DNA of 32,000 bases, taken from positions 3,600,001 through 3,632,000 of the forward strand of contig NZ_LN831039.1 of NCBI RefSeq assembly GCF_001457595.1, written 5' to 3'. A model generated the notes under the pieces. The model was not told the DNA's origin, searched no databases, and saw only the letters and a program-made list of their open reading frames with translations. Made by a program: the position numbers and the translations under genes. Position 1 is the first letter of the stretch; every line of letters starts with the position of its first letter. The stretch is from Mycolicibacterium smegmatis. Its GTDB lineage: Bacteria; Actinomycetota; Actinomycetes; Mycobacteriales; Mycobacteriaceae. This document shows, in pieces, positions 8,757-28,394 of the stretch.

Positions 8757-8778
<22 letters not shown>
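8683..8778 (-). repeat. 26-bp tandem repeat (about 3.7 copies) that duplicates the 3' end and stop codon of tpx
   Basis: The unit ccgagcgctttcagcgcttctgctag occupies 8683-8708, 8709-8734 and 8735-8760, and a partial fourth copy forms the native gene end. Each unit contains the palindrome AGCGC-tttca-GCGCT and a CTAG. Confidence 0.9.
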
Positions 8779-9251
<473 letters not shown>

Positions 9252-9361
9252 GCACAACAGTCTGTCAAAACCCGGGCCGGTTCCAACAGTCCGGGGTGAT
9301 AGCGAGCGTCGATGACGGGTGGGGCCGGGTCCGTGACGAGGGGTCTGGATGATGGGCAGGG

Positions 9362-10300
9362 ATGATCGAACTTCCTGATGCGGTACGTGCCATGGCCGCA
9401 CGCGGACCGCGGTGGCAAACCTGGGTCGACGGTCTCGCCAAACTCGTGCGCACGCAGATCGGCGACTGGGAACTGACCGTCGACGGCGCCGCCATGCATG
9501 GCTACTGCTCGATCGTCGTGCCGGTGCGTGACCGCGACGGCGCCTCGGCCGTGCTGAAGCTCTCGTTCCCCGACGACGAGACCGAACACGAACATCTCGC
9601 GCTGCGGCGGTGGGGCGGTCACGGTGCCGTACGCCTACTGCGCGCCGACCCGCATCACCGGGCCCTGCTGCTCGAACGGCTGAGCAACCGAAACCTCAAC
9701 GAGCTCTGGGACATCCAGGCCTGCGAGATCGTCGCCGGCCTCTACCGCGCACTGCACGTGCCTGCACTCCCGCAGGTGCGCTCGCTCCCCCGGGCCGTCA
9801 CCCGCTGGACCGACGGGCTGGCGGCGCTGCCGCGCAGCGCACCGGTGCCGCGCAGACTCGTCGAGCAGGCCATCACCCTCGGCGCGGATCTCGCCACCGA
9901 TCCGTCCAGTTCCGGCGTGCTGATCCACGGCGATCTGCACTACGAGAACGTGCTTGCGGGCCCGGTCGGCAGCGACGACGGCGACGACGGCGACGACACC
10001 GACGGCGGCCCGGGTTCCTGGGTGGCGATCGACCCGAAACCGTTCGACGGCGATCCGCACTACGAACTGGCCCCGATGCTGTGGAACCGCTGGGACGAGT
10101 TGACCGGATATGTGCGCGAAGGCGTACGGCGCCGGTTCTACGCAGTGGTCGACGCGGCCGGTCTCGACGCCGACCGCGCCCGTGCGTGGGTGATCGTGCG
10201 CATGATGCACAACGCGATGTGGGAGCTGACCGAACGGTCCGAGCCCGACGCTCACTGGCTCACCACGTGCGTGGCCATCGCCAAGGCCGTTCAGGACTGA
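9362..10300 (+). CDS. aminoglycoside phosphotransferase, APH(6)/streptomycin 6-kinase-like (APH_6_hur family)
   Basis: ATG at 9362; 312 aa. Kinase catalytic block VLIHGDLHYENVLAG, followed by WVAIDPKP and GDPHYELAPMLWNRWDE. N-terminal features include SAVLKLSFPDDETEHEHLALRRWGGHGAVRLL. Confidence 0.75.
   Translation: MIELPDAVRAMAARGPRWQTWVDGLAKLVRTQIGDWELTVDGAAMHGYCSIVVPVRDRDGASAVLKLSFPDDETEHEHLALRRWGGHGAVRLLRADPHHRALLLERLSNRNLNELWDIQACEIVAGLYRALHVPALPQVRSLPRAVTRWTDGLAALPRSAPVPRRLVEQAITLGADLATDPSSSGVLIHGDLHYENVLAGPVGSDDGDDGDDTDGGPGSWVAIDPKPFDGDPHYELAPMLWNRWDELTGYVREGVRRRFYAVVDAAGLDADRARAWVIVRMMHNAMWELTERSEPDAHWLTTCVAIAKAVQD
9974..10009 (+). repeat. in-frame 9-bp microsatellite (GACGACGGC-like x4) encoding an acidic DDGDDGDDTDGG insert in the kinase
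   Basis: The sequence gacgacggc gacgacggc gacgacacc gacggcggc lies immediately after the catalytic HGDLHYEN block. Confidence 0.7.
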
Positions 10301-11336: not shown

Positions 11337-11415
11337 CGGTACTGCGCAGCGCGCAGTATTGCCGCGCATAGAATGCGGCCATCACGGTCAAGAGACTGCG
11401 CGAACAGGAGTCCAG

Positions 11416-11670
11416 ATGACGCGGACGATTCGGCGGGGTGTGCGCACGGTGGTGTGGGGACTGTCGCTTGCCGCCCTTGCGGCGGCCCCGATGGGCGTGA
11501 CCACGATCGTGACACCTGCTGTCAGCGCCGCGTGCGCGCCCGGTGAGACCGGTGTGACCAACGGCTGCGCCCCGTTCTGCGTGCCGGGCCGCCACCTCGA
11601 CACCGCGACGGGCCTGTGCCTCAAAGACGCACCGCCACCGCCGCCACAGCTCCCCGCGCCCGCCTCATGA
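11416..11670 (+). CDS. small secreted Cys-containing protein with a poly-Pro tail (hypothetical)
   Basis: ATG at 11416 with AGGAG 6 nt upstream. The signal peptide is MTRTIRRGVRTVVWGLSLAALAAAP. The mature part has 4 Cys (CAPGETGVTNGCAPFCVPGRHLDTATGLC) and ends PPPPPQLPAPAS. Confidence 0.55.
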   Translation: MTRTIRRGVRTVVWGLSLAALAAAPMGVTTIVTPAVSAACAPGETGVTNGCAPFCVPGRHLDTATGLCLKDAPPPPPQLPAPAS

Positions 11671-11722: not shown

Positions 11723-12388
11723 ATGCCGAAAGTCCTGACCGTCAACGTGGCGCATCCCCGCCCGAACCCGGACAACGGGAAGCGCGTCACCGGTATCGAC
11801 AAGCGCCCTGTCGACGGTGCGGTCGAGGTGCGCTCCCCCGGTCCGCGGCGCGGTGGCCTGGGCAGCGGGTTGGTGGGCGACGTCATCGGCAACTCGAAGC
11901 ACCACGGCGGTGACGATCAGGCCGTGTACGCCTATGCGCGCGAAGATCTCGACGACTGGCAGGTGGCCCTCGACCGGGAGCTCACCAACGGCATGTTCGG
12001 CGAGAACCTCACCACCGAGGGCATCGACGTGACGAACGCGGTGATCGGTGAGCGGTGGCGCATCGGAACGGGCGGCCTGGAACTCGAGGTGACGCGCCCG
12101 CGCACGCCCTGCCGGACCTTCGCGGCATTCCTCGAGATCAACGGTCTTATGAAAACCTTCACCAGGGCCGGGAATCCGGGCGCATATCTGCGGCTGGTGC
12201 GGCCGGGGCACGTGCGTGCGGGAGACTCTGTCGAGATCGTCGAGCGACCCGACCACGGCATCACCATCGGCTTCGTGTTCCGCGCGCTCACCGGCGAATC
12301 CGAGCTGCTGCCGGAGATCCTGCGCGCCGACGCGCTGGCCGCCGAACTCAAGGAGCGCGCGGGGCGGCGCGTCGGCACGGCCGGCTGA
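11723..12388 (+). CDS. MOSC domain-containing protein (YiiM-like)
   Basis: ATG at 11723; 221 aa. MOSC blocks present: GDDQAVYAYAREDLD, GENLTTEGID, and ELEVTRPRTPCRTF with the conserved Cys. Confidence 0.85.
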   Translation: MPKVLTVNVAHPRPNPDNGKRVTGIDKRPVDGAVEVRSPGPRRGGLGSGLVGDVIGNSKHHGGDDQAVYAYAREDLDDWQVALDRELTNGMFGENLTTEGIDVTNAVIGERWRIGTGGLELEVTRPRTPCRTFAAFLEINGLMKTFTRAGNPGAYLRLVRPGHVRAGDSVEIVERPDHGITIGFVFRALTGESELLPEILRADALAAELKERAGRRVGTAG

Positions 12389-12389
12389 C

Positions 12390-12917
12390 TCAGGACGTGA
12401 AGCCCGGCAACGTGATCCCGACCGCGGCGTTCTCCTCGGGAGTTCCCAGCCGGTAGCCGTAGCGTTGGGCGGTCGCCACGAAATGCGCAAGCTCGGCGGG
12501 CGTCATCGGTGGTGAGCCTGCCGAGCGGCCGATCTCGCGGAAGAACCGGCCGATCTGCGGCGTGGTGATGACCAGATCGACGGCGGGTTCGTCGGAGATG
12601 TTGCGATGTGCGTGCAGTGCGTCACCCGGGACCCGCACGTAGTCACCCGCGCGCACGTCGTGCCACTGCAGACCGTCGTCGCCGTCGATCAGCACCTGGT
12701 GTTGCCCGGACAGGATGTAGAAGTCCTCGAAATCGTTGTGGCTGTGCAGCGGAACCGCCACACCGGGCGGCAGGACCGCGCGCAGAACGCAGATCTGGTT
12801 GTGCTCGTCGTCACTGAAGGTCACGAACTCCACGGTGGGCCCGGCCGCGTCGAGGGCAGGAAATCCCGCCCCCGCAGCAAGATTCGCAATGATCCCGGTG
12901 TCCGAGGGGTGAGGCAA
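12390..12917 (-). CDS. cupin domain protein (last gene of the catalase-sigma operon)
   Basis: TTG at 12917 with CAGGAG 6 nt upstream; 175 aa. Cupin motif 1 is PLHSHNDFEDFYILSG and motif 2 is PGDALHAHRN. The longer listed ORF (to 13304) overlaps the sigma gene in another frame and is rejected. Confidence 0.75.
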   Translation of the reverse strand: MPHPSDTGIIANLAAGAGFPALDAAGPTVEFVTFSDDEHNQICVLRAVLPPGVAVPLHSHNDFEDFYILSGQHQVLIDGDDGLQWHDVRAGDYVRVPGDALHAHRNISDEPAVDLVITTPQIGRFFREIGRSAGSPPMTPAELAHFVATAQRYGYRLGTPEENAAVGITLPGFTS

Positions 12918-12949
12918 AGTCGACTCCTGTCGGTTGCTTGCTGATACGT

Positions 12950-13546
12950 CTACTGGACGGTTTCGGACACCAGACCCCGTTGCTCGGCCACCTGGCGCAG
13001 CGATGCGCGCAACTGCCGGCGGCCGCGGTGCAACCGGGACATCACCGTGCCGAGCGCGGTGCCGGTGATCTCGGCGATCTGCTTGTACGACAGGCCTTCC
13101 ACATCGGCGTAATAGACCACGATGCGGTACTGCTCGCGCAGATCGGCCAACGCCTCCTTGATCTCCGTGTCGGGCAACGCTTCCAGCGCGTCGACCTCGG
13201 CAGACCGCAGGGCATGCCGGAACCGCAGCACCTCGCCGTCGGTGACACCCTCCATCGGCACTTCGTTGGGCCGCCGCTGACGTTTGCGGTACAGGTTGAT
13301 CCATGTGTTGTGCAGGATGCGGTAGAGCCAGGCCGTGAGATTCGAGCCCTCACGGAAAGTGTGAAAACCCGTGTAGGCCCGCAGAATCGTCTCCTGCACC
13401 AGATCCTCCGCGTCCTGCGGGTTGGCTGTCAGGCGCAGCGCCGCACCGTACAAGCGGTCCACCATGGGCACCACGTCGCGCGCGAAACGCGCGCTCAGAT
13501 CGGCACCCGGACCACCGTCCGGTGCGGTCGCTGCGTGACAGGTCAT
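12950..13546 (-). CDS. ECF RNA polymerase sigma factor, SigH/SigR-like
   Basis: 198 aa. Region 2 is [47 protein letters not shown]. Region 4 is [36 protein letters not shown]. The protein is collinear by eye with M. tuberculosis SigH. Its ATG overlaps the catalase TGA (ATGA). Confidence 0.88.
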
Positions 13547-15000
13547 CTGGCGCCCTGGCGCTTCCGTACGGCGTCCTCGATCCGGTCACCCGTCAACTTG
13601 TCGATGTTGCGCCAGTACTCGAACACCCGCTGCAACACGGGTTCGGAGACCCCATTGCTCAGGTGTCCCGCGACGTTGCCGACCAACCGGTCGCGCTCGG
13701 CGTCGTCCATGACGCGGCGCACGAGGTCACCGGCCTGCGTGAAGTCGTCGTCCTCGGCCCGCAGGGTGTAGGCGGTACGGACCATGTCCCCGTCGGCGTA
13801 CCACAGCGCCTCGTTCGTCTGGTTCGGGTCCGCGTGCGGGGCACCGTAGGAGTTCGGGGCGTACACCGGATCCGAGACGTTCGTGACGCGCATCGCCCCG
13901 TCCTTGGAGTAACTGTGCACGGGGCATCGCGGTGCGTTGACCGGGATCTGCTTGTAGTTCACCCCGATCCGCGCACGTGCGGCATCGGCGTAGGCGAACG
14001 TACGGGCCTGCAGCATCGTGTCCGGGCTCAGACCGGTGCCCGGCACCTGGTTGCTGGGCGCGAACGCGGCCTGCTCGATCTCGGTGTGGTGGTCGGTGAA
14101 ATTGCGGTCCAGCACCAACCGGCCGACGGTCACGAGCGGATAGTCGGCGTGCGGCCACACCTTGGTCAGGTCGAACGGGTTGATCCGGTAGGTCTTCGCG
14201 TCGTCGAACGGCATGATCTGGACCGCCAGGGTCCAGCTCGGGTACTCGCCGCGTGCGATCGCCTGGTGCAGATCACGCTGGTGGAAGTCGGCGTCCACAC
14301 CCGCCAGCCGGTCGGCCTCGTCCTGCGTAAGGTTTTCGACGCCCTGGTCGGAGATGAAATGGTACTTCACCCAATGGATCTCGCCTTCCGCGTTGATCCA
14401 GCTGTAGGTATGACTGCCGTACCCGTTCATGTGCCGCCACGTCCGCGGGATGCCGCGGTCGCCGAACAGCCACGCCACCTGATGTGCCGATTCGGGCGTG
14501 AGCGTGAAGAAGTCCCACTGCATGTCGTGATCACGCAGCCCGGTGTCGGCGCGGCGCTTCTGGGACCGGATGAAGTGCTGGAACTTCAGGCCGTCGCGGA
14601 TGAAGAAGACCGGTGTGTTGTTGCCGACGATGTCGAGATTGCCTGCGCTGGTGTAGAAACGCAGCGCGAATCCCCGCGGATCACGCCAGGTGTCCGGGCT
14701 TCCCCGCTCACCGGCGACCGTGGAGAAGCGGATGAGCGTGTCGGTCCGCACACCTGGCTGGAACACCGCCGCACTGGTGTAGCGGCTCACATCACCGGTG
14801 ACCTCGAAGTGGCCGAAGGCGCCCGACCCCTTGGCGTGTGGTTGCCGCTCCGGGATGCGCTCGCGGTTGAAGTTGGCCATCTGCTCGATCAGATAGTGGT
14901 CGTGCAGCAGGATCGGCCCGTCCGGACCGATGGTGAGCGAGTGCGTGTCGCTGGGCACCGGCGCGCCGGCGTCGGTGGTCGTGGCCCTCGGCTCGGTCAT
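13543..15000 (-). CDS. monofunctional heme catalase (small-subunit type)
   Basis: ATG at 15000 preceded by GGGGGAGGGA; 485 aa. Catalase signatures present: [49 protein letters not shown] and [11 protein letters not shown]. Confidence 0.93.
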
Positions 15001-15016
15001 GATGCGTCCCTCCCCC

Positions 15017-15673
15017 TCACTCGGGCCAGGTGTTGGTCAGGATGATGTTCACGAAGTCCTCGCGCTCGAACGACGGGTCGAAATGGGCCAGCACGTCGTC
15101 GTTCACGGTGCCGAACGTCGACTGCGGACGTTGCCGCACACCGTCGTTGAAGGCACGCAGGATACGGTTCTTGAAGTCAGGGCGCGGATGCACCGCGGTC
15201 ACCGCGGCCAGATCCTTCTCCGACAGATCGTCGCGGCCGATACCGAGCACGTCGGTCTCCACGCCCGCGGTCACCAGCGCCACCTCGGGATCGAGGAACT
15301 CGGGCACACCCGGCGTGGTGTGCAGCGCGATACCCAGCCACACCTTGCGTGCGGCTTCCTCACCGAACCCGCGCTGCAGCAGGAAATCTCGTGCAGCATT
15401 GGCACCGTCGACCTCGAAACGCAACGCCGAACCGGAGCGGTACGGCTCAGTCAGGCCGATGTCGTGGAACATCGCGCCGACGTAGAGCAGTTCCAGATCC
15501 GGCTGCAGGCCGCGATGCCGACCCTGCAGCGCCCCGAAGAAGAACACCCTGCGGGAGTGGTGGAACAGCAGGTCGTCCTCGACGTCGCGGATGTACTCGG
15601 TGACCTCACGCACCAATGGCGTATCGGGAACCGTGATACCGGCGACCTGGGTGGAACCGATTGACACAGACAT
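15017..15673 (-). CDS. HD-domain protein (metal-dependent hydrolase; possibly cyanamide-hydratase-like)
   Basis: ATG at 15673 with AAGGAGGA 6 nt upstream; 218 aa. HD motif elements are [12 protein letters not shown] ... [13 protein letters not shown]. The longer listed ORF (to 16099) is rejected. Confidence 0.8.
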
Positions 15674-15907
15674 GGCGAATCCTCCTTGGTTCGAACTTCG
15701 TCGATCGAGACATCTGGAAGAGTCGTGACCTCCTCGCCGGGTCTGCCGCAGTGGGACGCTTTTTGCGTTCTGCCTCCCAATAACGACGCCGCCGCCGAGA
15801 AGGATCACTTCCCGTTCTTGCGATCCGTTGTCAGTCTGCGGCGCGGCGTGAGCCGTGAGGCATGGCCGATCTGCCACATTTCCCACAAGAAGCGACACAA
15901 TGGGCGA
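15674..15907. promoter_or_regulatory. divergent promoter region between the HD/catalase operon and the GlxA-type regulator
   Basis: This is a 234-nt non-coding gap between divergent start codons, and the regulator is adjacent. I could not identify a defined operator with confidence. Confidence 0.4.
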
Positions 15908-16879
15908 ATGGCACATGCTCCGAACCGGCGCACCGTCGTGATCGTCGTCTTCGACGGGATGAAACTGCTTGACGTCGCAGGGCCGGCAGAGGTCTTCGCC
16001 GAGGCGAACCGGTTCGGCGCCGACTACGTGTTGAAGATCGCCTCGGTCGACGGTGCCGACGTCACCACGTCGGTGGGTACGAGATTCCCTGTGGACCAAA
16101 CCATCTCAGACATCGAGCACGCCGACACCGTACTGGTGTCCGGCGGCGACGACCTGGTGGGGCGGCCGATCGACCCGCAGCTGGTGGCCGCCGTGCGCGA
16201 GTTGGCGGGCCGCACGCGGCGCCTCGCCTCGATCTGCACGGGAACGTTCATCCTGGCGACCGCGGGCCTGCTCGCCGGGCGGCGCGCCACCACCCACTGG
16301 CGTCATGCGGGTCTGCTCCAACGTGCCTATCGCGACGTGTCGGTGGAACCCGACGCGATCTTCGTGCGCGACGGCGACATCTACACCTCCGCCGGGGTGT
16401 CGGCAGGCATCGACCTGGCGCTGGCACTGGTGGAACTCGACCACGGCTCGGAGCTGGTCCGCGAAGTGGCCCGCTCGCTGGTCGTGTACCTCAAACGCGC
16501 GGGTGGCCAGTCACAGTTCTCGACGCTGATCGAGTCCGATGCGCCTCAGCAGTCGGCGCTGCGGCGCGTCACCGAGGCGATCGCGGCCGACCCGGCCGCC
16601 GATCACAGTGTGCGCAGCCTCGCCAAGGTTGCGGCGTTGAGCACGCGGCAGCTCACCCGGCTGTTCCAGTCGGAACTCGGCACCACACCGGCGCGGTTCG
16701 TCGAGATGGTCCGCATCGATGCGGCGCGCGCCGCTCTCGATGCCGGAATGTCGGTGAGCGACACCGCGAGGCAGGCCGGTTTCGGCAGCCCCGAGACCCT
16801 CCGGAGAGTGTTCGTCACGCATCTCGGGGTGTCCCCGAAGGCCTACCGGGACCGGTTCCGCACCGCGGCCAGGAACTGA
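15908..16879 (+). CDS. GlxA-family transcriptional regulator (DJ-1/PfpI domain + AraC-type HTH)
   Basis: ATG at 15908; 323 aa. The N-terminal DJ-1-like domain has the nucleophile-elbow Cys (LASICTGTFILATAGLL). The C-terminal AraC HTH is LAKVAALSTRQLTRLFQSELGTTPARFV ... GFGSPETLRRVFVTHLGVSPKAYR. Confidence 0.85.
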   Translation: MAHAPNRRTVVIVVFDGMKLLDVAGPAEVFAEANRFGADYVLKIASVDGADVTTSVGTRFPVDQTISDIEHADTVLVSGGDDLVGRPIDPQLVAAVRELAGRTRRLASICTGTFILATAGLLAGRRATTHWRHAGLLQRAYRDVSVEPDAIFVRDGDIYTSAGVSAGIDLALALVELDHGSELVREVARSLVVYLKRAGGQSQFSTLIESDAPQQSALRRVTEAIAADPAADHSVRSLAKVAALSTRQLTRLFQSELGTTPARFVEMVRIDAARAALDAGMSVSDTARQAGFGSPETLRRVFVTHLGVSPKAYRDRFRTAARN

Positions 16880-22314: not shown

Positions 22315-22791
22315 GTGATGGCTGTCGACACAAAAGACAAGCGGCGCAAGAAATTCTCGATCAGCGCGCTGGCACGGCGCTTCTGGATTCCACTGCTCAT
22401 CGGCGCCGTGGTGTTCGTCGGCGCGTTCACCGTGATGCGCGTGCGCACGTTCTTCGGCTCCGGTGACGATCCCAGCCTGGCCAGCGCCAAGGTCGACGAC
22501 ACCAAACCCTTCGATCCCAAGGTCGTGGTCTACGAGATCTACGGCGAGCCCGGCGCGACCGCCGACATCAACTACCTGGACCTCGACGCCCAACCGCAAC
22601 GCGTCGACGGTGCGACCCTCCCCTGGTCTCTGACGTTGTCCACCACGGCACCTTCGGTGTTCCCCAACATCGTGGCGCAGGGCAACGGCGACACCATCAC
22701 CTGCCGGATCACCGTCGACGACGAGCTCAAGGATGAGCGCACGTCGAACGGCGTGAACGCCCAGACCTTCTGCCTGGTGAAATCTGCATGA
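22315..22791 (+). CDS. mmpS: MmpS-family membrane protein
   Basis: Start is GTG 22315 or ATG 22318. The protein has a basic N-terminus, a single TM helix ([19 protein letters not shown]) and a C-terminal MmpS domain with a Cys pair (ITCRITVDD ... TFCLVKSA). Its stop overlaps the mmpL ATG (ATGA). Confidence 0.9.
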
Positions 22792-25697
22792 GCAACCCGA
22801 GCCACGACGCCCCGACCGACGCCATGGGTGTCATCGGACCCAAGCATGCGCGCCCCGGCGGGATCGCGAAGTGGATCCGGGTTCTCGCCGTTCCGATCAT
22901 CCTGGTGTGGGTCGCGATCATCGCGGTCCTGAACACCGTCGTCCCGCAGCTCGACGTCGTCGGCGAGATGCGCTCGGTGTCGATGAGCCCCGACGACGCG
23001 CCCTCGGTGATCGCCATGAAGCGCGTCGGCGAGGTCTTCGAGGAGTTCAAGTCCAACAGCTCGGTGATGATCGTGCTGGAGGGCGAACAACCGCTCGGCG
23101 ACGAGGCGCACAAGTACTACGACGAGATCGTCGACAAGCTCGAGGCCGATCCCGCGCACGTCGAGCACGTGCAGGATTTCTGGGGCGATCCGCTCACGGC
23201 GTCCGGTGCGCAGAGCCCGGACGGTCTGGCGTCGTATGTGCAGGTCTACACCCGTGGTAACCAGGGTGAGGCGCTGGCCAACGAATCGGTCGAGGCCGTC
23301 CAGGACATCGTCGACAGCGTCCCTGCCCCGCCGGGGGTCAAGGCGTATGTGACCGGGCCCGCCGCGTTGTCGGCGGATCAGCACGTGGCCAGCGATCGCA
23401 GCGTGCGCGTCATCGAGGCACTGACGTTCGCGGTCATCATCACCATGTTGCTGCTGGTCTACCGGTCGATCGTGACCGTGATCCTCACGCTCGTCATGGT
23501 GGTGCTGTCGCTGTCCGCGGCGCGCGGCGTGATCGCGTTCCTCGGCTACCACGAGATCATCGGTCTTTCCGTCTTCGCGACGAACCTCCTGACCACCTTG
23601 GCGATCGCCGCCGCGACCGACTACGCGATCTTCCTGATCGGCCGTTATCAAGAGGCCAGAAGTGTCGGCGAAGACCGGGAGCAGTCCTACTACACGATGT
23701 TCCACAGCACGGCGCACGTCGTGCTGGGCTCCGGCATGACGATCGCGGGCGCGACCTTGTGCCTGCACTTCACCCGCATGCCGTACTTCCAGTCGCTGGG
23801 CATCCCACTGGCCATCGGTATGAGCGTGGTGGTCCTGGCCTCGTTGACCATGGGCGCCGCGATCATCTCGGTCGCGAGCCGGTTCGGCAAGACCTTCGAG
23901 CCCAAGCGTGCGATGCGCACCCGCGGGTGGCGCAAACTCGGTGCGGCCGTGGTGCGTTGGCCTGCGCCGATCCTGGTGACCACCATCGCGTTGTCGGTTG
24001 TCGGCCTACTGGCGCTGCCCGGGTACCAGACCAACTACAACGACCGCAGGTACCTGCCCCAGGACCTGCCCGCCAACACCGGTTACGCCGCGGCCGACCG
24101 GCACTTCTCGCAGGCCAGGATGAACCCGGAACTGCTGATGATCGAGTCGGACCACGACCTGCGCAACAGCGCGGACTTCCTGGTGGTCGACCGGATCGCC
24201 AAGCGGGTCTTCCAGGTGCCCGGCATCTCACGCGTGCAGGCCATCACGCGTCCGCAGGGCACGCCCATCGAGCACACCTCGATCCCGTTCCAGATCAGCA
24301 TGTCCGGCACCACGCAGATGATGAACATGAAGTACATGCAGGACCGCATGGCCGACATGTTGGTGATGGCCGACGAGATGCAGAAGAGCGTCGACACCAT
24401 GGAGGAGATGCTCAAGATCACGCGTGAGATGAGCGATACCACTCACAGCATGGTCGGCAAGATGCACGGCATGGTCGAGGACATCAAGGAGCTGCGCGAC
24501 CACATCGCCGATTTCGACGATTTCCTCCGGCCGATCCGCAACTACTTCTACTGGGAGCCGCACTGCGACAGCATCCCGGTCTGCCAGTCGATCCGCTCGA
24601 TCTTCGACACCCTCGACGGCATCGACGTGATGACCGACGACATCCAGCGGTTGATGCCGGACATGGACCGTCTCGACGAGCTCATGCCGCAGATGCTCAC
24701 GATCATGCCGCCCATGATCGAGTCGATGAAGACGATGAAGACCATGATGCTGACGACGCAGGCCACCATGGGCGGTCTGCAGGATCAGATGGAAGCGGCC
24801 ATGGAGAACCAGACCGCCATGGGTCAGGCCTTCGACGCGTCCAAGAACGACGACTCGTTCTACCTGCCGCCTGAGACGTTCGAGAATCCGGACTTCAAGC
24901 GCGGTATGAAGATGTTCCTGTCGCCCGACGGGCACGCGGTGCGCTTCATCATCAGCCACGAGGGCGATCCGATGAGCCCCGAGGGCATCAAGCACATCGA
25001 CGCCATCAAGCAGGCCGCGAAGGAGGCCATCAAGGGCACGCCGCTGGAGGGCTCGAAGATTTACCTCGGCGGCACCGCGGCCACCTTCAAGGATTTGCAG
25101 GAAGGCGCCAACTACGACCTGATCATCGCCGGCATCGCGGCGCTGTGCCTGATCTTCATCATCATGCTCATCATCACGCGGGCCGTGGTGGCCTCGGCGG
25201 TGATCGTCGGCACGGTGGTCATATCCCTCGGCGCGTCGTTCGGTCTGTCGGTACTCATCTGGCAGCACATCATCGGGCTCGAGCTGCACTGGATGGTGCT
25301 GGCCATGGCGGTGATCGTGCTGCTGGCCGTCGGTGCGGACTACAACCTGCTGCTGGTCTCACGCATCAAGGAGGAGATCTACGCCGGTCTCAACACGGGC
25401 ATCATCCGGTCGATGGGCGGCACCGGCTCGGTGGTCACCTCGGCGGGTCTGGTGTTCGCATTCACCATGATGTCGATGGCCGTCAGCGAGTTGGCCGTCA
25501 TCGCGCAGGTGGGTACGACGATCGGCCTGGGCCTGCTGTTCGACACCTTGGTGATCCGCTCGTTCATGACGCCGTCGATCGCGGCGCTGATGGGCAAGTG
25601 GTTCTGGTGGCCGCAGCGCGTGCGCCAGCGCCCCCTGCCCGCGCCGTGGCCGCAGCCAGTGCAGCGTAATCCCGAAGACGCGCTGAACCGGGTCTGA
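22788..25697 (+). CDS. mmpL: MmpL-family RND transporter (MmpL4/MmpL5-like)
   Basis: 969 aa with two six-helix transmembrane blocks and a long coiled, Met-rich periplasmic insert ([33 protein letters not shown]...). It is preceded by a translationally coupled mmpS. Confidence 0.93.
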
Positions 25698-27647: not shown

Positions 27648-28394
27648 GTGATCGTGCTCCTGCCTCCATCGGAGACCAAGCGCACCGGCGGGGACGGCCC
27701 GCCGCTGCGCCTGGACAACTTGACCCAGCCGGCGCTGACACCACTGCGTACCGAACTGGTCGACGAACTCGTGGCCCTGGCCGCGGATCCGCCCGCCTGC
27801 CGTAAGGCGTTGGGCCTGACGCCCAAGCAGGACGCCGAGATCACGCGTAACGCCGAACTCCGCGAGGCTCCGACGCTTCCCGCGATCGAGCGCTACACCG
27901 GCGTGCTCTACGACGCGCTCGACGTCGGATCCTTGCGCGGCACGTCAGCCGGGCGGGCCCGTGAGCGGTTGGCGGTCGGTTCGGCGCTGTTCGGGCTCGT
28001 GCGCGCAGACGACCGGATACCGGCCTACCGGCTGTCCGCCTCGGCGAAACTGCCCGGCCGCCGTGGGCTGAGCACCCGCTGGCGGCCGGTCCTCGAGCCG
28101 GTGCTGGAGAAACTGGCCGCCGAGCAACTCATCGTCGACCTGCGGTCGGGTGCATACGCCGCGCTCGGCCGGATCCCCGGCGCGGTGCGGGTGCAGGTGC
28201 TCGCCGAACATCCCGACGGCCGGCGCACCGTGGTCAGCCACTTCAACAAGGCGCACAAGGGCCGGTTGGCACGTGCCCTCGTCGAGACCCGCGCCGAACC
28301 CAAGGACTGCGGTGCCGTCGCAGCCGTTGCCGAACGTGCCGGGATGCGGGTCGAACATGACGGCGATGACCTGACCGTCGTGGTGCCGGCCTGA
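27648..28394 (+). CDS. yaaA: peroxide stress protein YaaA (DUF328)
   Basis: GTG at 27648; 248 aa. The protein starts MIVLLPPSETK and contains ERYTGVLYDALD, IPAYRLS, VDLRSGAY and VVSHFNKAHKGRLARAL, which are typical YaaA blocks. Confidence 0.85.
   Translation: MIVLLPPSETKRTGGDGPPLRLDNLTQPALTPLRTELVDELVALAADPPACRKALGLTPKQDAEITRNAELREAPTLPAIERYTGVLYDALDVGSLRGTSAGRARERLAVGSALFGLVRADDRIPAYRLSASAKLPGRRGLSTRWRPVLEPVLEKLAAEQLIVDLRSGAYAALGRIPGAVRVQVLAEHPDGRRTVVSHFNKAHKGRLARALVETRAEPKDCGAVAAVAERAGMRVEHDGDDLTVVVPA

Follow-up and report, generated by a model that had tools for sequence, protein, structure and literature searches.

A probable orphan SigH-type sigma factor, SigH1, encoded in a predicted detoxification operon beside a DJ-1/AraC regulator in Mycolicibacterium smegmatis

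The stretch of DNA analyzed here, called the window below, comprises 32,000 nucleotides (nt) of Mycolicibacterium smegmatis (assembly GCF_001457595.1, contig NZ_LN831039.1, forward-strand positions 3,600,001 to 3,632,000), and all coordinates are counted from its first letter. It contains four tightly packed minus-strand genes, MSMEG_3487 to MSMEG_3484, that encode, in this order, an HD-domain hydrolase, a catalase, a SigH-like sigma factor of the extracytoplasmic function (ECF) type, and a cupin. A regulator that combines a DJ-1 domain with an AraC-type DNA-binding domain is encoded divergently from them. We propose, with a probability of roughly 60%, that the four genes form a stress and detoxification operon, that the sigma factor, SigH1, has no anti-sigma factor and is set mainly by its synthesis from a promoter under the control of the DJ-1/AraC regulator, and that the cupin is enzyme cargo. 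The sigma factor has already been named; it is one of a known set of seven sigH paralogues in M. smegmatis, and some small ECF12 subgroups without an anti-sigma factor are already recorded in the ECF classification. The locus is an uncharacterised member of that class, probably transcriptionally controlled. The initial annotation of the window had singled out these genes as a candidate for an undescribed regulatory module. For the conserved DJ-1/AraC context of such a sigma factor no description was found in the literature surveyed, and it is not among the conserved ECF12 neighbourhoods of the ECF classification.

The packing of the genes can be read directly from the sequence, and the coordinates and junctions first annotated were all borne out. 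Sixteen nucleotides (GGGGGAGGGACGCATC) lie between the HD gene and the catalase ATG at 15000, the catalase TGA and the sigma ATG overlap by 4 nt as ATGA (13546-13543), and the gap of 32 nt between the sigma and cupin genes contains CAGGAG, 6 nt short of the cupin TTG at 12917. On the far side of the cupin, the stop of a convergent gene for a MOSC protein (MSMEG_3483; 11723-12388, plus strand) is 1 nt from the cupin stop, so that a further open reading frame (ORF) cannot fit. A promoter and terminator scan of positions 12000-16100 revealed no terminator-like sites between the four genes and no sigma-70 promoter-like sites; two terminator-like sites were placed inside the HD gene, within the number expected by chance. 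Pfam and NCBIfam confirmed all the domain calls (HD, Catalase, Sigma70_r2/r4_2, Cupin_2, and DJ-1_PfpI with HTH_18). The locus tags MSMEG_3483-3488 were assigned by comparing product names, sizes and gene order with the published M. smegmatis tables, in which 3485 is listed as 'sigH1', ECF sigma RpoE1, 3486 as katA, 3487 as a metal-dependent phosphohydrolase and 3488 as AraC family.

The assignment of the sigma factor to the SigH type, made in the initial annotation by eye, was upheld. The protein aligns with M. tuberculosis SigH (5zx2_F) over residues 12-193 with E=3e-71, and its -35 recognition helix is identical to the helix of that protein. On the NCBIfam model TIGR02947 (SigH_actino) it scores 245.9 bits, which is 5.6 below the equivalog cut-off of 251.55. 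Its two-domain ECF architecture and SigH-level similarity place it in ECF12, the SigH/SigR-type group. Within this group it is a diverged paralogue. Orthologues with more than 85% identity occur in the smegmatis/goodii group only, and the next matches are canonical SigH proteins, at 62-68%. In a neighbour-joining tree the canonical SigH proteins form a tight clade, and the window sigma, together with other sigmas linked to HD or AraC genes, lies outside it on long branches. The ratio of nonsynonymous to synonymous substitution rates (dN/dS) in comparison with M. goodii is 0.21 for the sigma gene and 0.08-0.12 for its neighbours; a value of 0.21 implies that the sigma factor is under purifying selection. 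The invariant residues of regions 2 and 4 are kept across 15 paralogues, and both findings speak for a functional sigma factor.

SigH of mycobacteria and SigR of Streptomyces are ECF12 sigmas paired with the zinc-binding anti-sigma factors (ZAS) RshA and RsrA. The window sigma shares with them the features described above and an oxidative-stress context, but it differs in that no ZAS is encoded at the +1 position or elsewhere in the window, in that a SigH-type autoregulatory promoter is lacking, and in that its gene is the third of a predicted enzyme operon. The +1 position is taken by the cupin gene, and the cupin is not a soluble ZAS. When stop-free stretches of at least 50 residues were searched in six frames across the whole window for the ZAS motif HxxxCxxC, two matches were obtained. 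One of these, HRDHCESC at 12877-12900 (minus strand, third frame), lies between the sigma and cupin genes and was considered as a hidden ZAS; it was rejected as a chance match because the stop-free stretch of 76 residues around it contains no ATG, GTG or TTG and because the motif is absent in a related locus, L053.

This absence is not peculiar to the window. Following a proposal of the initial annotation, we surveyed what lies after the sigma gene in relatives, and found that a ZAS is missing from all of 11 loci that carry a sigma of the orphan type. These are the window itself, L010, and nine others (M. goodii L064, L059, L061, L053, L007, L008, L056, L060 and L063; the labels are our own), which led us to reject a local deletion of rshA, an event that a normal RshA-like gene in relatives would have implied. 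A canonical SigH, used as a control, is followed directly by an overlapping gene for a zf-HC2 protein of 100 residues. A metagenome scan made with an alignment of the orphan sigmas returned almost only canonical SigH-RshA pairs and no new orphan loci, and it was used as a baseline: RshA is encoded immediately downstream in 71 of 80 SigH-like loci (tblastn), a diverged ZAS ORF was recognized by its motif in 3 more, and the remaining 6 contigs stop within ~240 nt after the sigma gene. A ZAS is thus encoded at 74 of the 80 SigH-like baseline loci and at 0 of the 11 orphan loci, and the absence is therefore old and conserved. The window sigma is an orphan in the sense that it has no cognate anti-sigma gene and shares this trait with its relatives, and most likely it is an ECF12 paralogue whose control lies in how much of it is synthesized. 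In a review, ECF12s2 and ECF12s9 of mycobacteria come under the heading 'transcriptional regulation'. These and other ECFs (HrpL/ECF32, SigE-CseBC/ECF39, and ECF203 with TetR) likewise have no cognate anti-sigma factor, and their activity is proposed to follow transcription directed by another regulator. However, ECF12s9/s2 are described as a convergent, overlapping sigma pair, whereas the window sigma is encoded in a detoxification operon behind a DJ-1/AraC regulator.

What might control the synthesis of SigH1 is suggested by the divergent gene MSMEG_3488. Its product is a fusion of a DJ-1/PfpI domain (DJ-1_PfpI, residues 10-177, 3.6e-30) to an AraC-type double helix-turn-helix (HTH_18, residues 239-317, 2.5e-22). 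It resembles regulators of the GlxA/FtrA/GbdR type in the nucleophile-elbow Cys of its N-terminal domain (SICTG), in its C-terminal double helix-turn-helix and in having a divergent target operon, but it falls below the equivalog cut-offs of FtrA (243.9 bits against 425) and GbdR (136 against 480), and its target operon includes a sigma factor. The ATG of the gene is at 15908, not 15905, and the divergent intergenic region is 234 bp long. The HD gene is paired with an AraC regulator in many mycobacteria. In L053, L059, L060, L061 and L064, a homologue of MSMEG_3488 (74-91% identity) adjoins either the orphan sigma gene or the HD gene ahead of it. The recurring partner of the sigma is the DJ-1/AraC regulator. 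The initial annotation had named the regulator as a second control input; it is a likely one and probably the main one.

Inspection of the divergent region suggests how this control might be exerted. An operator-like motif upstream of the regulator gene (Table 1) is kept in the AraC-HD intergenic regions of nine species, where an alignment (A2) reveals the block ...CCATT..GTGTCGC-N4-TGTGGGAAA..GGC..GCC..(~22 nt)..CA(G/C)ACTG. The motif occurs 24 times in 2.2 Mb of loci, and 16 of these occurrences are no more than 120 bp away from an AraC N-terminus. The -10-like hexamer at the end of the block, CA(G/C)ACT(G), is invariant in the alignment, and in L020 the HD gene has its ATG 8 nt past the hexamer, as would be the case for a leaderless transcript. 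The operator and CAGACT block directly precedes the HD, catalase, sigma and cupin genes in the window and in M. goodii, the HD and sigma genes in L059, where the order is AraC, HD-sigma, MOSC and both the catalase and the cupin are missing, and the sigma and cupin genes in L061. This conserved operator and -10 block is thus found ahead of operons with a sigma gene in at least four species and is a candidate for their promoter. A SigH-type promoter (GGAA-N18-21-GTT), through which the sigma factor might have activated its own gene, is absent from the intergenic positions 15674-15907. The only match near the operon, GGAA-N20-GTT at 15468-15494 (minus strand), falls within the coding sequence of the HD gene, ~470 nt ahead of where the catalase gene starts, and was set aside; in the window as a whole, 9 GGAA-N-GTT matches were observed and 5.5 expected, within chance.

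Table 1. Genes of the predicted operon, the divergent regulator and the candidate control sites between them (window coordinates).
Feature	Locus tag	Length	Position	Strand	Remarks
HD-domain hydrolase	MSMEG_3487	218 aa	15017..15673	-	First gene of predicted operon; ATG with AAGGAGG upstream; TGA 15019-15017
Monofunctional haem catalase KatA	MSMEG_3486	485 aa	13543..15000	-	Pfam Catalase (1e-180) and Catalase-rel
SigH-like ECF12 sigma factor, 'sigH1'	MSMEG_3485	198 aa	12950..13546	-	Pfam Sigma70_r2 and r4_2
Monocupin with 3His/1Glu metal motif	MSMEG_3484	175 aa	12390..12917	-	Cupin_2 (3.8e-13); conserved C-terminal helical tail
DJ-1/PfpI + AraC regulator (GlxA/FtrA-type)	MSMEG_3488	323 aa	15908..16879	+	DJ-1_PfpI and HTH_18
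Operator-like motif GTGTCGCTTCTTGTGGGAAA			15879..15898	-	10-29 bp upstream of regulator ATG; single exact match in window
-10-like hexamer CAGACT			15833..15838	-	40 nt downstream of operator; predicted operon promoter with ~150-nt leader

Two further observations concern the control regions. An element in the 5'-leader, GAACGGGAAGTGATCCTTCTCGGCGGCGGCGTCGTTA (15781-15817, minus strand), is conserved in M. goodii (L064) and in Mycobacterium sp. LTG2003 (L059). It matches no Rfam family and its fold z-score is weak (-1.85); as an ECF promoter of the form GGAA...cGTT it was rejected, the spacer of 24-25 nt being too long. Large LuxR-type regulators are encoded upstream of the HD-(catalase)-sigma genes in L007 (873-3641), L008 (18-2108), L056 (21-2111) and L060 (1863-4673, with AAA_16 and GerE domains). 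No DJ-1/AraC gene was detected within the locus examined at L007, L008 and L056, and L060 has both types of regulator.

In the mechanism that we propose, MSMEG_3488 most likely governs one promoter in the divergent region, adjoining the conserved operator, and this single promoter would give rise to an HD-katA-sigH1-cupin transcript. SigH1 has diverged from its paralogue SigH, the thiol-stress sigma, with the SigH-type -35 helix retained, and it probably recognizes SigH-like promoters. Since it lacks a cognate anti-sigma gene, the amount made would be the main determinant of its activity. When the regulator switches the operon on, the cell would thus acquire the enzymes together with a pulse of SigH-like transcription that is free of a zinc-thiol switch of its own, and the cupin would serve as a metal-dependent, quercetinase-like cargo enzyme with no partnership with the sigma. 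This amounts to a concrete and testable control circuit for one of the seven SigH paralogues of M. smegmatis, with the DJ-1/AraC operator and promoter as its likely input. If it is correct, a second, chemically distinct signal is wired into the SigH-type stress regulon without the zinc-thiol switch.

The catalase is a variable cargo gene in this arrangement, present in L008, L056 and L064 and absent from L007, L053, L059 and L061. The suggestion of the initial annotation that an orphan SigH paralogue is hard-wired to a peroxide-detoxifying enzyme is thus only partly borne out.

The first gene of the operon and the regulator may together provide a hint about the signal. The HD protein matches Pfam HD (9.9e-09) and scores 50 bits, below cut-off, on the cyanamide-hydratase family TIGR03401, and its only solved relatives are the yeast cyanamide hydratases Ddi2/3 (6dka, E=1e-4). 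The DJ-1 domain of the regulator is closest to the isonitrile hydratase InhA (E=1e-22). It is speculative to deduce from this pair of resemblances the class of inducer or substrate. Because the HD protein is Ddi2-like and the regulator InhA-like, cyanamide or isonitrile may be suggested as a guide to the signal. A more general idea, which we advance tentatively and with less than even confidence, is that a one-component DJ-1/AraC sensor and an orphan SigH paralogue together make up a two-tier module conserved in mycobacteria. The DJ-1 domain would read a small-molecule signal, which might be cyanamide-, isonitrile- or electrophile-like, and the response would comprise both the detoxification enzymes and a burst of SigH-type transcription that either circumvents the thiol switch of RshA or titrates RshA.

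Published expression data bear on the operon as a whole. In the supplement of an RNA-seq study of NaOCl stress (Hillion et al., PMC5430705), the log2 fold changes are 2.92 for the HD gene, 1.92 for the catalase, 1.46 for the sigma and 1.40 for the cupin, so that all four genes are induced and induction declines in the 5'-to-3' direction along the operon. No entries for the operon genes were found in supplements of the M. smegmatis transcription start site paper.

Several points weigh against the model in which SigH1 is set by its synthesis from a single regulated promoter. The induction by NaOCl is modest and the expression of the operon low, and the operon genes were not found in supplementary lists of an H2O2 study. 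There may be internal promoters within the four-gene cluster. The binding of the regulator to the operator-like motif is proposed from the conservation and position of the motif only. The cupin gene is located downstream of the sigma gene, on the same strand, in 7 of the 11 orphan sigma loci, a proportion that is partly biased by the way in which the loci were found, and there may be a functional link of some kind between the two. Finally, as 62-68% identity is shared between the sigma and canonical SigH, capture of the sigma in trans by RshA is plausible, and this would add a post-translational layer that a model based on synthesis alone omits.

This last possibility deserves the most serious consideration. 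RshA, encoded at the sigH locus (MSMEG_1915), might bind SigH1 in trans, so that induction of the operon would yield a redox-gated sigma or, alternatively, would titrate RshA and set SigH free. Either outcome is compatible with simultaneous transcriptional control by the AraC-type regulator. Besides the degree of identity, the end-to-end alignment with M. tuberculosis SigH speaks for this, and NaOCl, which induces the operon, is a thiol oxidant. On the other hand, the long branches of the orphan paralogues set them well apart from the compact clade of canonical SigH proteins, the dN/dS of the orphan gene is about twice that of its neighbours, which is compatible with the loss of a binding constraint, and the operon was not counted by Hillion et al. 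(PMC5430705) as part of the SigH/RshA regulon. Taken together, these considerations make an interaction with RshA credible but, in our estimation, unlikely.

Far less probable is a role for the cupin as a non-canonical partner or sensor of SigH1, as suggested in the initial annotation, or even as its anti-sigma factor; the cupin of ChrR provides the analogy. As in the ChrR-RpoE system (ECF11), a metal-binding cupin is encoded beside an oxidative-stress ECF sigma. The cupin gene follows the sigma gene immediately in the window, in M. goodii, in L053 and in L061, with stop and start overlapping in L061 and L064, and its frequency downstream of orphan sigmas was noted above. The protein also has a weak match to Cupin_7, the ChrR-like cupin family (26.3 bits, below the cut-off of 27), and the single cysteine that was first annotated, C43, is nearly invariant. 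However, in ChrR the sigma is bound by an N-terminal ZAS domain, of which the window cupin has no counterpart: neither a helical anti-sigma domain nor HxxxCxxC was found in its 175 residues or in an AlphaFold (AF2) model (mean predicted local distance difference test score, pLDDT, 90.5), which consists of a beta-barrel and three short C-terminal helices. It is said, of work by Campbell et al. in 2007, that the N-terminal anti-sigma domain (ASD) of ChrR and not its cupin is what contacts the sigma factor, and this also counts against a role for a cupin on its own.

The genomic distribution of the cupin argues in the same direction. More than 600 close homologues are present in mycobacteria. In a scan centred on the cupin, with one genome per species and 52 loci, a SigH-like sigma was encoded within 6 kb of the cupin at 5 loci and was lacking at the other 47, so that there is no consistent co-occurrence with an ECF sigma such as a ChrR-type protein would be expected to display. 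Many of the 52 loci contain HD paralogues, a DJ-1/AraC regulator or a different catalase, about half contain none of these, and in other species the cupin gene is directly paired with catalase, TetR or SDR genes. Conversely, L059, which is syntenic with the window, has the sigma gene but no cupin gene, and so do L060 and L063. In L007 and L008 a gene for an HGGGW-type esterase intervenes between the two, and in L056 they are separated by an equal distance of ~1 kb. The analogy to ChrR, tempting as it is for stand-alone cupins that adjoin ECF sigmas, is not supported, and neither is the partnership.

The cupin is best read as a metal-dependent, quercetinase-like enzyme that is often found in the company of catalase, HD and AraC genes and is not a dedicated partner of the sigma; this assessment comes from sequence and model comparisons. 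Both metal-binding motifs of the initial annotation are present, and H58, H60, E64, H102 and H104 do not vary among 77 homologues, at least 90% of which also keep C43. The best fold matches are quercetinases, the Ni-quercetinase QueD of Streptomyces (5flh; template modelling score 0.68, E=1.5e-10, 150 of 175 columns) and YxaG of B. subtilis, and ChrR is not among the top 50. In a profile search YxaG was also the best match (E~1e-8), followed by QueD (~1e-6), and the alignment with YxaG takes in part of the C-terminal tail. The barrel, the 3His-1Glu site and the similarity to QueD and YxaG, including the invariant HxH...E...H ligands, thus mark the protein as a quercetinase-like monocupin, but the identity to these enzymes is only ~20%, which does not fix the substrate, and the cupin family has a C-terminal sequence of its own, TPEENAAVGIxLPxF, in addition to the conserved Cys. 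A protein identical to the cupin is found in GCA_019930745.1, and many assemblies that share the gene order of the window also encode it.

Two side observations concern the cupins. A catalase about 50% identical to KatA is encoded directly upstream of a cupin homologue in L146 (2481-4531; M. agri), and the same is seen in L009, L048 and L057. Because the M. agri catalase gene overlaps that of the cupin and the sigma is absent there, the catalase-cupin pair exists independently of the sigma. A second, distinct cupin of ~180 residues (MTITPGAVVTVVHPGEGD... in L007, 279-821; a similar protein in L053, 4260-4790) has its gene upstream of that for the HD protein; at L053 this gene comes directly after the AraC-linked promoter. 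The second cupin has a similar C-terminal helical tail.

A final alternative is that the sigma gene is a duplicate, in decay or without function, that was trapped in a catalase-cupin enzyme cluster, as its restriction to the M. smegmatis/goodii group (at >85% identity), its low expression in the NaOCl data (A-value ~5; PMC5430705) and a dN/dS above that of its neighbours might suggest; this is the least probable of the explanations considered, since the reading frame is unbroken and its start is coupled through ATGA, selection on it is purifying, the region 2 and 4 residues are kept, and several species have a sigma of this type behind the same operator.

The remainder of the window shows no signs of mobile elements, and its GC content is uniform (62-73%). 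Between the MOSC gene and menC, a small Cys-rich protein of ~84 residues with an N-terminus resembling a signal peptide is encoded at 11359-11670 (plus strand). It is not a ZAS and belongs to no Pfam family, and its synteny is kept in M. goodii and in L059. Other genes of the window that are redox-related or otherwise of note encode a YaaA peroxide-stress protein (27648-28394, plus strand), a Bcp-like redoxin (8757-9401, minus strand) and an MmpS/MmpL pair (22315-25697, plus strand).

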